NCBI GenBank assembly: GCA_038087875.1
Contig: CM075996.1
Location: 126,001 to 190,000, forward strand
Length of the DNA: 64,000 bases
Direction of reading: 5' to 3'
Source of the DNA: Malacoraja senta
Lineage: Eukaryota
A program made the translations under genes and the position numbers. Positions 3,021 to 58,499 of this stretch are shown piece after piece. Numbering within the stretch: position 1 is the first letter of the stretch; each line of letters opens with the position of its first letter. The notes beneath the pieces were generated by a model, which ran no database searches, had not been told where the DNA came from, and saw only the letters and a program-made list of their open reading frames with translations.

Positions 3021-3524
3021 TAAAAATCTGCTCAGGCATCCTACGGAGTGATGGTTAAATTGCCACTCGTATACCACCGGCCTTGGTTAATAACCCAGAG
3101 ATCCAAGAAATCAGGCAGTATTGGTAATAAAATGTACAGATTGCAAAATTGCATCTGATTCACTTTTGCCCTTCAGAGTTGGCGATCTGGGTCTTACTTT
3201 GTGTGGGACTATATGTGATCACCAACCTGCAGCAATTCTGTTGTCCCATAACTGCCCACTGAAATGGCCCAACATGCCATTCCGTTCAAGAATTCAACAG
3301 AGTAACTATTTTGGGGGATGAGCTCATCACTGTAATTATTGTCCACCATAAATGACCTTGAGTACAAGGTGTGATGAGCGCTCACTATTCCTTGAGTACG
3401 GGATGTTGCAGAGAGCAGGCATTGTAGGCTGGATGCTGGACAATCCCACCCAATGATGATCTAAGTTAAGGTGATGAAATAATAGTAATAATAATAATAA
3501 TAAATGTATAACAAATAATAATAA

Positions 3525-43640: not shown

Positions 43641-44248
43641 ACTCTCTTGAACTCTTGAGGGTTGGTTAGCGGGGATGGTGGGACAATCAGTGGTCAGAGC
43701 ACTGGTAGTCAGCGTGGCAGGTAGATTGTTGGGGGTGAAGATGGTGTTGGCAGTCAGGCAATGTTCAGAGCAGTCAGTTGGGGAACCTCAAGCAGACTTT
43801 GGTGTCACTGAAGGAAGAGGTGTAGCAACCCACTCCATGCATGGGCAGCTGCAGTGAGGACAGTATGGAAATTGAACTATATGTGTGGGCATGTTGGCAG
43901 ACCACACCAACAGCAGGCCTGGAAGAATAATGTCGGGAACCTTCCCGAATTTCCAGTACATTTTCTCTTTCATTTGGAATTGAAAATAGGGCTTAGAGCA
44001 GGTAACTCTGACAGTGCAGCACTTAGTCAGTGCTGGACCATCAGACGTGATTGTATTCTGAAGATGTTAGCGGAAAGGCCAAGAGGCCTTTGTTTGTGAG
44101 ATCCTCCGCCCTCCTGTGCACGGAGTTTCCTGTCCTACTTCTAGAGTTGTGGAGAGGGGTGGGTTTCGATGTCAGGGTTTTGAATACTTCAGGGCAAATC
44201 AAAATTGAGACTTGCATGAGATTTTATTGTTACACACAGGCGCCAGTT

Positions 44249-44563
44249 CCTCTCCGTTGGATTGCAACCTTGTCGTGGTCGGGTAGCTTATGTGTGTCTC
44301 AGTGACCCCTAGAGCTATGCCAGCGGGAGATTCGTCTCCTGTTAGGGTCTCCCATGCTGGACAGGTCGAAGGGTAGAGGCGAGACGAAGAGCGATCCACT
44401 GGCCCTCCAGGTTGGAGGTTGAGCACAGGGCTAACAACCCTGTGTCGTAAAACAAATGTGTTACGGAAACAGCAACTGAAGGAATCAACACTACTGAGTG
44501 GAGGACCTTCGTTGCTGCCCTACATGCCAGGAGGCATAATCGGCAGTAAGTAAGTAAGTAAGT
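44249..44563 (+). mobile_element. Bipartite RTE-derived non-autonomous retroelement
   Basis: RTE/BovB-type 5' motif (ccttgtcgtgg...gagctatgcc) fused to an RTE-type 3' end (WRTFVAAL) with (TAAG)n tail; 13-bp TSD acaggc(g/c)ccagtt. Confidence 0.8.
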
Positions 44564-44717
44564 ACAGGCCCCAGTTTACAAACTCCATCTTGTGGACTGA
44601 TTGTTGCTCAATTGACATTTCAAAAGCATTTCAAAAGTAATCAGCAGGTACATTTGGAGGCAGTGGTGCACTCTCGGAAGAGCAGTTCTGAGTGAATGTC
44701 AGCTGTTGGATTTGTAC

Positions 44718-45168
44718 GGTAGACAAAAATGCTGGAGAAACTCAGCGGGCGAGGCAGCATCTATGGAGCGAAGGAAATAGGCAACGTTTTGGGTCGAGAC
44801 CCTTCTTCAGACTGATGTGAGGGTGGGGGGGGGGGGGGGGGGGCGGGAAGAAGAAAGGAAGAGATGAAGCCAGTGGGCTGAAGGAGAGCTGAGAAGGGGA
44901 GGGAGAAAGTAAGGACTACCTGAAATTGGAGAAGTCAATGTTCATACCGCTGGGGTGCAAACTGCTCAAGCGAAATATGAGGTGCTGCTCCTCCAATTTA
45001 CGGTGGTCCTCACTCGGGCCATGGAGGAGGCCCAGGACAGAAAGGTCGGATTTGGAATGAGAGGGAGAGTTGAAGTGCTGAGCCACCGGGAGATCAGGTT
45101 GGTTATTGCGAACCAAGCGGTGGTGTTGGGCGAAGCGATCGCCAAGCCGACGCTTGGTCTCACCGATG
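44718..45168 (-). mobile_element. Penelope-like retroelement 3' end (GIY-YIG and terminal repeat)
   Basis: IGETKRRLGDRFAQH...PVAQHFNSPSH...GMNIDFSNFR. Confidence 0.92.
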
Positions 45169-46225
45169 GATTTGCACAACTGGAGGAATGCTGCACTGTA
45201 GCAATGGTGGCAGCGAGGGAGAGCCACTTTACAGCAACACTGAGGGAGCACTTTCATTTCAGAAGGACAGTACGAAGAAAGAGCCGCATTGTTGGACTGG
45301 CATAAATTTAAACAACACTGCATGTCAGAGGGCAACATTGAGTGAATGCCGCATTTAGTCAGAGCAGTTTAAAGTGCCATTTTTTTAAAGATGTATTAAA
45401 CTAATTGTCCCGTCTGCTTTCACGGGGGCAATGTAAAAGATTCTATGTTGTTAACTCAAAAAGAGCAGGTCATTTTCACCGCTGTAGTGAATCTAACATG
45501 AATCCTGAAAATAAATGATCTGATCACAATCAGATTTCTGTATCGCTATTTTTGTATAGCTTGTTTTCTAAAAAGCTTGTTTTGCTGCATTTTCCACATA
45601 AATATACTAACTAAAAAATAATTTAATACTGAGGACAACCTCTGGTCTTGGTATCCACTGTAACAAAGCGTGTCCCCCATTTCTTCATCTTGGTGATGGG
45701 CTGAATGGCCTCCTCATGCCCTGTAAGGTTCTGAGAACACTTGTCCGAAACTTTGGGATTTATTACTCTTTGTCTCTATGCTTCCCCTCGCGTTCCTTGC
45801 TTCTTCTCAGGCTGTTTTCATGACGATGTTTGCTTGCAACAAAGCTGCTACTCAAATCTTTCAAAGCTGCTGCTCGGGAAACTCTGAAGGCAGTGGCTGG
45901 GTAACCTGCCGATTGAATTTCAGCCCCCCCCCCCCTCCCCTCCCTTTCATCTTTGTGAAGCAAAGTGATTTGATTAAAGTGCTGAGTGACTGGGGGCACT
46001 GGATCCAAATCCAGAGGATACCTGGGCGATAAACATCCCACCACCTGCAGAGCTCAGGCATTAGGTAGCAGGCGGGGAGGAAGAGATGGTGGAGGGCTGG
46101 ACAGTGGTGAGAAGGGCAGGAAGGGATCGGATAACCAGATTACAGATCACAGATTGTCAGCGGAGAGAAGGTTTTTTGACAGAACAATTTCGAGAAACCA
46201 GCTCCTGTTTCTCCTAACCAGAAAC

Positions 46226-54230: not shown

Positions 54231-55190
54231 TTAAACCATAGTTTCTGCAAACAATCCCGCATTAACAATAGGCCGATGGTAAAAATGTTGAAACATCAAC
54301 TCATTGGACCACCCGGTGGCTGCGAGGATATAGTCGACGGGGACGTCTTTTGCCCTGGCCGCCGACGTTTCTGCTGCCCTAGTCGAGTGAGACGTAAAAA
54401 CATAAGTGTTAATACCAGCAGCTGTTAAGACTTCTTTTATCCATCTGGAAATAGTCTGTATTGAAACTCTCTTGTGTGGTTTCTTGTGTATGATCAACAA
54501 CCCAGTTTCCGTATTTCTCAAATTCTTTGTGACCTCAATGTATTGTAACAAATATGTCTTAACACAGAGACAAGGATCATTTGGATATGCTGCTAGCATA
54601 ATTTTAAATCCTGTCACACCTGGCCTAATTTACTTTAGTAGGTCATAGATATAGAATGTAACCTTGTCTTCAGTTACTTCCATACTGTCTATTTGTAATT
54701 TTCCAAGTGTTTGCACTCGTTGTGCTGTCACTCATGCCATAAGCATGAATACTTTCATACTGAGCTTGGCCAAAGGTAAAGACACACTTGGTGACCATTC
54801 ACGAAGTAGTTTCAGTACCACACTTACATCCCAGATTGTCATGTACCTAGGTTTTGGTGGTTTGGAATTAAAGATTTCTTTCATTAGTCTGGAAACAATT
54901 GGGTGTGACCCAATTGGGTTTCTTTCTGAATCCAGAACCAAATATGAGGACAATGCACTTCTGGCTGAATTAATTGCACTACAACTCAGACCTTCATCAT
55001 AATAAAGTTTTGACAGAAATTCTAAACATTTGAAATATCTGCAGTACTATATTGCACATTCTTTTGTACACAGAACTCTTCCCATTTCTTAATATAAGAA
55101 AGGTACTGTTTTTGAGTGCTCTTCCTCCAGGCTGCCGTAAGCATGTCCACAGTACGCTCAGACAGTCCTCGCCCCAGAAAAGGCCTTCTT
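54231..55190 (-). pseudogene. DIRS tyrosine recombinase (frameshifted)
   Basis: AAWRKSTQKQY...; HPIVSRLMK..KPPKPRY..WDV; AQRVQTL; SHSTRAA; AATGWS..FQHFYHR (R...H-x-x-R...W...Y catalytic set). Confidence 0.9.
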
Positions 55191-55601
55191 AAAACCTGCA
55201 AATCAACAAATCCAAACGATCATATAATGGATGTTGTTCCCCTGTTACAGGGTGCAGCAATAAATTACTCCTTTTTGGGACTTTCATCAACATTTGTGTT
55301 GTTAATTCTAATATCAACGGATACCATGGCTGTGTAGGCCAATCTAGTACTACTAATACCCCTGACGCAGCATCTTGCCTGATTTTAAGCAAACATTGGC
55401 TTATGAGGCAGAAAAGTGGAAATATATATATGAAAACATACCACCCCAATGTAGCGAGAAAGCATCAATCGCCACTGCTCCTGGATCTGATTCCCATGAG
55501 ACATATCTCGATAGCTGATGATTCAGTCTAGATGCAAACAAGTCGATGTCGGGCATTCCAAATCTGATTACTATATCATTGAATACCTCTCGATTCAACA
55601 T
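55189..55601 (-). pseudogene. DIRS Dam-like N6-adenine methyltransferase domain (frameshifted)
   Basis: PDIDLFASRLNHQL..YVSW..DAFSLHW; YIFPLF (FPPF-like); VVLDWPTQPWYP. Confidence 0.85.
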
Positions 55602-55619
55602 CCATTCTTATTATCATGG

Positions 55620-57060
55620 AACTTTCGTGACCTGGTGTCTGCTATCGTGTTCATTCTACCTGGTAGATAGATAGCTGAAATCCAAATGTTCTTTTCAATA
55701 CACCCAGACCAAAGTTGATTAGCCATTTTGTCACATGATTCCACCCATATCATTAATATAGGCAACTGCTGTTGTGTTTATCAATTTGAACTTGAACATG
55801 CCTTTTAGTTGTGTTAGAACAATAAGCTTGGAGTCCATAGAAACATCCTAAAACTCCAAATAGTTAACTCCCCATGTCTGCAGTAACAATGACTCTTCCT
55901 GATTCCATCTGCCTCCGCAGCTAGATGCTAAGTCAGTTGCACCCCATCCTAGTGCACTGGCATCAGTTTGTAATATCATGGAAGGTTGTTCAATCAGCAC
56001 TTTGCTGGAACTGCTTGAGACATGTAGAATCCACCACTGCAGATCAGAAACAGCATTTGTTGTTAGTTGCATGGTTCTATCAATATGACCAGCATGCATT
56101 CTCAGTGCCTGTTCTTTAACTCTCTGCAGCTGTTGATAATGTAATGGTCCGTATTGGACTGCTGGGAATGCTGCTACTAATTTTCCCAGTACTCGAGCCA
56201 CCTGTCTGATTGAGGGTTTTTGCTCGTTTAACAGATTACTGCAATCTTTAATCAATTCCACCCTTTTTTCACTGGGCAAAGTAATTTTCATTTGGACTGA
56301 ATCAATTGTGAACCCCAAATAATCAATCGAGGTACATGGTGTTAACCTTGATTTCTTTGGATGAATTAGAAACCCCAAACTTTGAAAAGTTGATTTCACA
56401 ACTGCAACAGATGCTTCTGTTGACTGTTTTGTCCTTCCTATAATCAGGACATCATCCAAGTATGCCATTAGTGCATGCCCCTGGCTTCTCAGCAACCCCA
56501 GAATTGGTTTTTAACAATTTTGTGAATATTCTGGGAGCGGATGTTAATCCATTAGGCAAAGCTTTGAACTGCCATAACTGGTTCATCCATGTAAATTTAA
56601 GATACTTCCTATCTTCCGAGTAAACAGACACTGAATAATATGTATCTTTTAAATCTATAATTGCCATATGACATGCTTCTGAAATAAGTTGTTTGGCAGT
56701 CACAAATGTCTCCCTTTTAAAATGTTTAAATTAAACAAAAGGATTCAGACTTGTCAAGTCTAGAATAATCCTACATCCTCCATCCTTTTTTGATCGAGGG
56801 AATATATTTGACACAAATTGGTGAATTTGGTAGACTGATTCTTCAATAACACCTTTTATATATATAGGGTTTGAAATGCAGCTTGAACCTCCATCACTTC
56901 TTTTTGTGCAAAGTGGAGAGTTCTGCTAGGAACATGCTGGACAGGCAAATCATAATTTGGATTGAATTCAATTCGAAATCCTTGTATACTATTCAGAATT
57001 ACCACATTTGAAGTAATCTTCTTCCAATTGTTATAGAAGATCCGTAATCTGCCTCCAACG
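55620..57060 (-). pseudogene. DIRS reverse transcriptase and RNase H (frameshifted)
   Basis: VGGRL..FY..W; IDLKDTYYSV; LPNGLTSAPRIFTK; AYLDD; DYLG; QTDASALGWG. Confidence 0.93.
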
Positions 57061-57099
57061 TTTGGACTTAATCCGGTTAGTATGTTCCCATGAGAACCA

Positions 57100-58253
57100 G
57101 GTCCACCTACCTCTTGAATCATTTGAGTACTCTGAGATCCCTGGATTCTCCCGGAAGCACCCCCACTGGTTCTTGCTCCCGCTGCAGGCCGCCAGCTACG
57201 TCCCTGCGTTAATGAGCGACTTGGTCCTGGTCCAGGATCCGTATGACGTCTGAAAGGATACTTCCTCTTTACAGACTTTACAACCATTGATGTTTTCATC
57301 AATCCTGTTTTCGCTTCATCTTCCAACTCTTTAATACGTCTCCCGAGATCCTCTCCAAAGAGTAAGTTGGGTAATTGTACATTACTTGGTTTGCAGAGTG
57401 CTGCGAATTTCGGATTCATAGTAGGCCATATAGCACCTTTCCTCAGACAATTGATCTCGAAGTGGGTGCTGCATAGCAACCCCAGTGCTTCCTGATGCAA
57501 CTCCGTCATCTCTTGGCTTTTATCTGCTATTCTGGCAAAAGCAGTTATTCCAGAAACCAGCAGCTTTAATATTCTCTGCAATTTCAATTCTTGAGTTCTC
57601 ATAGTCATACTCAACTCATATTTTCTTGCATTCTCATCCATCTCCTGCTGTTCCAGCTGATGGGAAACCAAGTAATTTATTAGGGAGGCCAATTCTTCTC
57701 CTAATGGCTCTCCTGACCCTGACGGGGCAGCGAATCGTACTGCCAGGGATGGAACATCTGGCAGCTGCCGTTCTTCGCCTTGTACAGCCTCACCATCAGA
57801 GTCGGAGTCTGAAATCTCATGACCCGTGGCACGCTCCTCATCCCTGAGGGTGCATTCTATCAGCCCTGTACCAGGAGCTGTTGAGCTGCTTCCAGCAGCT
57901 TGGATTTCAGTACACTCTTACCCGAGTGTGCTTCGCTCCAACAGCCTATGTTGCAGGCTTTCCATTTGGGCAATACGCTTAAAAGCAGTATCTAGCTCTG
58001 GAGCTTCTTCCATTTCCATTTCCTGGGACTCCTCCTCCGTGGCCCGTTTCGATTTGAACTTGGCCTTGCGCCCGACAGGCGCTGACTGCCCCAGGTCCAC
58101 AGTCGCTATGCTCACCGCTGGCGACTGTACCGGGGTTAGAGGCGGTTGGTCGCTAACCGCAGACTCCCGACTTTCCCGACTTTCTGTCGGCTGTGTCGCT
58201 CGCCTCTTCCCCCTGCCCGTTTTTTCCATGGCGTCTGTGGAAAAAATCCCCAC
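57100..58253 (-). pseudogene. DIRS gag-like ORF1 (disrupted)
   Basis: ORFs 57918-58253 and 56856-57692 (LLFGEDL motif) lie 5' of RT. Confidence 0.7.
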
Positions 58254-58499
58254 AGACCCACAGTAAACGGACCTGAAAATACTGAAAAAAGTTTTTACTT
58301 AGCTTGTAGTTAAAAAACTACAAATCCATTAGAGGAGCTCTGCTCCTCACGTCCGTTTGCATCAAGGCGTCTGACGTAATGACGTGCAGGCGCACTGGCG
58401 GGGTTCTTTACGTATTCACTCACGTGACTCCGAAGTAAAATAGCATATATCTGGAACTCCTATTAAGCTGTGGATGCTGGATACCAATTTCTGCTTGGT

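Follow-up and report, generated by a model that had tools for sequence, protein, structure and literature searches.

Positions 44250 to 44563 of the window (the whole stretch of Malacoraja senta DNA that was analysed, 64,000 nt in length) hold a bipartite, nonautonomous RTE element of 314 nt. We consider it likely that this is a mini-RTE made from the two ends of a LINE, whose first 149 nt form a predicted HDV-like double-pseudoknot ribozyme that probably frees the 5′ end, and that the LINE protein would copy it. Most copies of the element begin at position 1 of helix P1, and among homologues helices P1, P2, and P4 covary and a C-N-A-A joiner is conserved. All features described lie on the forward strand unless stated otherwise.

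Structure, copies, and parent of the element

The element is flanked by 13-bp TSDs (44236 to 44248 and 44564 to 44576; 12/13 identical) and ends in (TAAG)4 at 44547 to 44563, a tail that starts with the stop codon of an ORF; a first-pass annotation of the window had recognized both features. It had also placed the start of a 315-bp unit at 44249. As the base at −1 (44249) is random over 27 to 30 copies, it is additional to the family sequence, and the true start is 44250. No tRNA gene was identified in the element by ARAGORN, nor was any A-box or B-box match, which agrees with the reported absence of a tRNA head. The element is also without a 5S or 7SL head, and its copies are dispersed with TSDs.

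A DNA search of the same genome (1.94 Gb) returned 853 candidates, and the 40 that were scored shared 95 to 97% identity over nearly the whole length. TSDs were found for 22 of 30 scored copies and for 23 of 30 in a second copy set. Fifteen of those 22 ended directly before the equivalent of 44250, and five more overlapped the first bases of the element. The median divergence of copies from the majority sequence was 2.0%, and that of the window copy was 1.6% (58 sequences, some loci being counted twice).

The element corresponds to the first ∼246 nt plus the last ∼67 nt of a ∼3.3-kb EN+RT LINE in the same genome. A full-length, decayed copy of this LINE (L051; about 3,430 nt, a nested repeat included), reached via a 3′-end pattern with a different upstream neighbor (174 matches), has the same 5′ start, ORF end, and tail. 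The matches cover LINE nt 3 to 247 (92%) and 3361 to 3428 (97%), the middle being deleted in the element, which retains the final 16 codons of the RTE ORF plus its stop (44499 to 44549) and a terminal hairpin (44515 to 44546). In L051, RVT_1 was detected with an E value of 1e−20, and the EN Pfam match was weak and below the cut-off. The nearest proteins were 78 to 86% identical, many of them EN+RT proteins of ∼1,000 amino acids on 3.2- to 3.5-kb contigs, some from named fish and snails. Judged by these sequence characters (EN+RT, ∼3.3 kb, and a microsatellite tail), the parent is an RTE-type LINE. The RTE derivation proposed earlier is borne out by the matches of both element ends to L051 together with its RT match, and mobilization by RTE in trans is supported by the shared 5′ 246 nt and 3′ end. 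No intact ORF was found in 12 LINE copies (L051 and 11 more); the 11 were without a stop-free frame of >376 amino acids in the stretches covered, and therefore the family may be inactive now.

A piece of the L051 RT (nt 1208 to 1687) is 78 to 80% identical to proteins of teleost fish and of gastropods, and these identities are suggestive of horizontal transfer. By eye, the 5′ core of the element also heads the Repbase entries RTE-3_Crp, RTE-14_Lch, and RTE1-N1_LA in the supplement of Kojima (PMC5786205).

Two more RTE-type families in the genome (B and C) share the loop L3, with 1,466 pattern matches versus 17 in the control. Both show the same predicted ribozyme fold and are mostly bipartite, together giving over a thousand pattern matches (loci L052 to L081 and L106 to L117), and family B carries two different 3′ tails, both complementary to one 5′ arm. 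Pieces of the element family were also present in contigs of four runs guessed to be RNA; such contigs cannot reveal ends, strand, or level and support no claim about expression.

Elsewhere in the window, minus-strand frames at 54231 to 58298 look by eye gag-like, RT/RNase H-like, and tyrosine-recombinase-like, and are presumably pieces of a DIRS/Ngaro-type element; a minus-strand frame at 44916 to 45368 has what we take to be a resemblance to a Penelope-type GIY-YIG end. CR1/L2-like fragments and palindromic repeats lie densely in the remainder of the window.

Predicted ribozyme fold and 5′ ends of copies

The 5′ strand of P1 (CTCTCCG, 44250 to 44256), with C1 at 44250 as the predicted cleavage position, pairs at six of seven positions with CGGGTAG at 44280 to 44286. 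The 6/7 pairing noted in the first-pass annotation is true of the window copy but reflects private damage (C44253T and G44284T), as the majority of family copies pair at 7/7, and the duplex energy changes from −12.7 kcal/mol in the majority sequence to −3.4 kcal/mol. With P1 so weakened and a 2-nt insertion (44289 to 44290) after P1.1, the window copy is probably impaired. P3 (44267 to 44269 with 44277 to 44279) closes L3 (44270 to 44276), in which the equivalents of U20, G22, and G25 are 44270, 44272, and 44275; the letters ACC-TTGTCGT-GGT at 44267 to 44279 are as originally described. So is the P1.1 layout, a G44272-C44287 pair plus U·U, its bases C44287 and T44288 completing the segment that begins with the 3′ strand of P1 (44280 to 44288).

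The location of P2 emerged from family C, where a perfect 9-bp helix joins the strand before P3 to the strand after a C-U-A-A motif ∼95 nt downstream of P1.1. The equivalent site in the window comprises C44385 and an 8-bp P2 between 44258 to 44265 and 44391 to 44398. A44266 faces G44389, where most homologues have a C-G or U-A pair, and the top of P2 in family A is A·G rather than Watson-Crick, which counts against a ribozyme. P1.1 and P2 are separated by a large branched P4 (44291 to 44382; base helix 44296 to 44300 with 44376 to 44380, then a three-way junction) and by J4/2 (44383 to 44390), in which a variable base and then two adenines come after the candidate catalytic cytosine 44385.

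Homologues were gathered with a metagenome scan whose pattern held neither P1, P2, nor the joiner; it returned 101 loci, of which 97 could be parsed (4 were left out) and 71 had the strict joiner motif (a further 26 left out). Over 16 lineage groups, own-lineage pairing of P1 beat all 100,000 permutations, as did that of the far P2 (−9.6 kcal/mol own-lineage versus −4.1 kcal/mol cross-lineage; 0/100,000), and the HDV-like core claimed to start at the 5′ end is thus upheld. In a MAFFT alignment of 28 rows, the far P2 was 84.8% paired with two-sided changes at 8/8 pairs; 0/500 shuffles were as good, and slid controls reached 33 to 45%. The rows were chosen from loci carrying the joiner motif, itself picked once the data had been inspected, and shuffle tests are inflated by relatedness among rows. 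Covariation, which the first-pass annotation had named as a check, therefore supports P1 and the far P2, and not the P2 it had drawn. Since the search patterns prescribed P3, L3, and P1.1, covariation gives no independent test of these parts; compensatory changes in P3 were seen only in L083 and, by eye, in RTE1-N1_LA. A pattern for P3 variants gave 24 matches versus 125 in the control, which is noise save for three or four family B copies.

P4 is a branched domain of ∼95 nt, and its five helices were 74 to 95% paired in the 28 rows, with two-sided changes at 18/24 pairs. A model built from this alignment matched 98 of 100 loci (L218 left out), and the pairing of the P4 helices was found again on 85 distinct rows, counts that lean to the model since they come from an alignment fitted to it. 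Within P4, 44305 to 44320 and 44364 to 44374 form a tandem G·A internal loop with a short bulge, kink-turn-like by eye, which holds the motif GCTA. In L120, L125, and their relatives, P4 is shortened to ∼22 or 52 nt while P1, P2, and the joiner are kept, so that these are natural minimal versions. The C75-N-A-A joiner is conserved though absent from the scan pattern: among 81 distinct full homologue matches (5 of the 98 model matches excluded, 2 as weak and 3 as cut off), the cytosine was present in 77, followed by a variable base and then adenines in 76 and 75. This conservation makes C44385 a candidate for the catalytic cytosine of an HDV-like fold.

Searches of Rfam gave no match for the window or for eight cleaner homologues, even at E values of 5 to 10. 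Minimum-energy folding gave other structures, a method that cannot show a pseudoknot. The first-pass annotation had worried that a weak P2 and a cytosine at position 1 could mean a variant or dead fold. Both concerns are addressed at the family level, where P2 has 8 bp and C1-G37 with G22-C38 is the clade norm, because position 37 is G in 91 of the 97 parsed homologues; the purine at +1 of the HDV/CPEB3 type (G1·U37) is replaced by C1-G37 throughout, and such a purine is no general requirement of HDV-like ribozymes, since L1TcRz has C1.

A 3′-end motif had 272 exact matches, and the 5′ ends of copies were assessed in the first 30 of these, a choice that avoids favoring full-length copies. Twenty-seven begin at P1 position 1 (one pair among them being a segmental duplicate), one begins at position 9, and two are truncated, giving the pile-up at the P1 start that had been named as a check. 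In a set of 30 copies picked by the main junction, 22 start at position 1, 3 start elsewhere in the initial 7 nt, and the other 5 have lost 32 to 157 nt by truncation. In families A, B, and C alike, conservation begins at +1, each family having its own, fully complementary P1, and the 5′ ends are more ragged in family B (C at +1 in 15/29).

Precise 5′ ends can, by analogy with Pr77, which is both promoter and ribozyme, also stem from an internal promoter. The 5′ end could thus be set by an internal promoter for polymerase II within the first 240 nt, with the fold secondary to it or working alongside, as in Pr77/L1TcRz (PMC3185411). This would fit the retention of at least 240 nt, ∼90 beyond the ribozyme, in all deletions and the conservation of the stretch after P2 in distant homologues. 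Yet the boundary equals P1 position 1 in three families with differing P1 sequences, and a DNA promoter leaves the two-sided changes in P1, P2, and P4 unexplained, so we regard this explanation as unlikely, while it and the ribozyme are mutually compatible.

It is quite unlikely that a genuine fold has lost catalysis in this clade and persists because it serves protein binding, translation initiation, or 5′ protection. The large conserved P4 suggests a binding role, and the pyrimidine at +1, the single P1.1 pair, and the imperfect top of P2 in family A all lean that way; HDV prefers G1·U37, and changes there lower activity (PMC1874588). Against this, the equivalents of C75, A77, and A78 are retained in 75 to 77 of the 81 homologues and the intervening base varies, as would be expected for a catalytic joiner, and C1 is compatible with activity in L1TcRz, the active L1Tc ribozyme, which has C at +1 according to a primer sequence and a remark on a "C1A39 mismatch."

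The compact ribozyme drawn by the first-pass annotation (J4/2 at GCTA, 44314 to 44317, and P2 as GCA/TGC) is very improbable: its letters are present and its GC(T/G)A motif is fairly conserved, but they lie in the P4 internal loop, only 44% of the P2 cells are paired (75/500 shuffles as good; an A-U pair in 3/28 rows), own-lineage pairing is no better than cross-lineage (−3.6 versus −3.9 kcal/mol; 76,525/100,000 permutations), and short-P4 homologues without the motif still keep the far joiner and P2. The supported 3′ strand of P2 is ∼75 nt further downstream, and therefore a C-to-U control at GCTA, as proposed, would probe the wrong position, the candidate being C44385.

Internal-deletion junctions and proposed mechanism

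The element's internal-deletion junction (44496 to 44497) joins LINE nt ∼246 to ∼3359 with 1 to 2 nt of microhomology and is the commonest junction, with 132 exact matches. In the set picked by the 3′ end, 29 of 30 copies were bipartite and one was a full LINE; the main junction was present in 11 of the 29, and the other 18 had 15 different junctions. Counting four further loci, there are ∼20 junction types in all, with 5′ breakpoints at nt 240 to 334, 3′ breakpoints at LINE nt 3081 to 3360, and mostly 1 to 5 nt of microhomology. When three minor junctions were searched genome-wide, two were unique and one had three exact and three near matches; the unique junctions suggest that deletions arose during copying or shortly afterward, across the loop closed by a stem between the two ends. 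The flanks of one main-junction copy (L291) match loose contig ends from two other organisms. From these matches the insertion is probably shared by descent with them, and therefore the main-junction subfamily may predate the split of those organisms.

The stem in question is predicted to join the LINE 5′ UTR to the 3′ end: 44470 to 44482 (5′ arm) can pair with 44506 to 44517 (3′ arm) over 12 bp with one bulge, the arms being 3.1 kb apart in the parent. No other LINE window pairs as well with the 5′ arm as the 3′ end does (−23.0 versus −15.7 for the next), 0/1,000 shuffles were as good, and the predicted probability of the stem in a clean copy was 0.94 to 0.99. Every junction observed falls inside this stem, and those of families B and C and of L159 also fall within stems, of different sequence. 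The stem was absent from the short metagenome elements L172 and L174. Two other complements with the 3′ end were rejected, namely, a perfect 9-bp one at nt 151 to 160 (102/1,000 shuffles; predicted probability of zero) and one involving the J4/2-P2 strand (1/1,000, weak after ∼60 windows tested).

In the mechanism that we propose, a host promoter would transcribe a copy, and the read-through RNA would fold co-transcriptionally. C44385 could then cut 5′ of C1, freeing an RNA that starts at P1 and ends with the hairpin and tail, which the RTE protein would recognize and copy by target-primed reverse transcription, leaving TSDs of 8 to 16 bp. We infer, as first suggested, that the element is promoterless and excises itself. 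More tentatively, the 5′ UTR and the 3′ end could pair in the LINE RNA, and the reverse transcriptase would skip or delete the loop; such skipping may be why nearly all copies keep both ends, and deletion products that do so could amplify.

A broader proposal, which we hold to be possible though doubtful, is that a flipped-pair (C1-G37, G22-C38), large-branched-P4 HDV-like subclass is animal-wide and heads BovB/RTE1-type retrotransposons, mammalian ones included, and that the 5′ UTR and 3′ end of RTE RNA pair to form a loop, so that RT skips the ORF time and again and makes mini-elements with a complete ribozyme in place of the usual 5′-truncated copies. The analysis turns a general prediction, 5′ ribozymes of RTEs, into an exact, testable structure with a named candidate catalytic base, and points to a subtype missed by Rfam that RTE families from fish, reptiles, invertebrates, and afrotherian mammals seem to have in common. 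Should the fold be active, host transcripts could be cut by a very large number of genomic copies, and the pyrimidine at the cleavage site would widen the known tolerance of the HDV fold.

Comparison with known systems

HDV-like ribozymes of RTE and other non-LTR elements were reportedly described by Ruminski et al. in 2011, with the first base as the element's 5′ end. The present fold, which has no Rfam match, may differ from those ribozymes in its C1-G37 and G22-C38 pairs and its ∼95-nt branched P4. No description of a C1-G37, large-P4 subtype was found in the literature searched, the scope of which excluded Ruminski 2011, Webb 2009, and most supplements. PMC6765202 and PMC3774820 refer to ribozymes in RTE elements, and earlier descriptors for HDV-like searches have been called too restrictive (PMC4035085).

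Bipartite RTE elements, the idea of a 5′ ribozyme, and tested analogues (R2 SIDEs and NARTc) are already known. RTE-N1/N2_Lch, RTE1-N1_LA, RTESINE, WALLSI3, and Bov-A share with the present element the 5′ and 3′ ends of an RTE LINE, no RNA-derived head, and a microsatellite tail (PMC5786205). Kojima suggested in 2018 that a 5′ ribozyme is the reason for 5′ end retention in such bipartite elements and asked why internally deleted partners are formed by only a small number of LINE clades (PMC5786205). The portions of that paper drawn on here contain no fold or test, whereas here a covariation-resolved fold was obtained and ∼20 junctions were mapped from one parent; the junction series and the end-joining stem offer a mechanism for the question. 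By eye, in the supplement of the same paper, the entire core, its P3 compensatory, is present in elephant RTE1-N1_LA, and the tRNA-headed horse element SINE2-1_EC carries A in place of G25, which would be expected if cleavage has to be lost in a headed SINE.

The R2 SIDEs of Drosophila likewise have a ribozyme and a 3′ end joined by internal deletion; self-cleavage was shown for them and a template jump discussed, and they differ in being rDNA site specific and rare, with a large J1/2 where the present fold has a large P4 (PMC3414825). Twister variants of Perere-3 resemble the present case in belonging to an RTE-clade element, in lying at a 5′ end that adjoins the TSD, and in the GTAA-type tail, but the fold is that of twister and the element is autonomous (PMC8501958). 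L1TcRz of L1Tc/NARTc in Trypanosoma cruzi, like the fold described here, has C at +1 and a single-pair P1.1, which is disrupted by G−1; L1TcRz is active, while cleavage here is predicted (PMC3185411, PMC4035085). L1Tc differs in belonging to the Ingi clade, in its 77-nt ribozyme with a short P4 that doubles as a promoter, and in its poly(A) tail. L1TcRz is carried by a LINE and by its internally deleted partner, as is the present fold.
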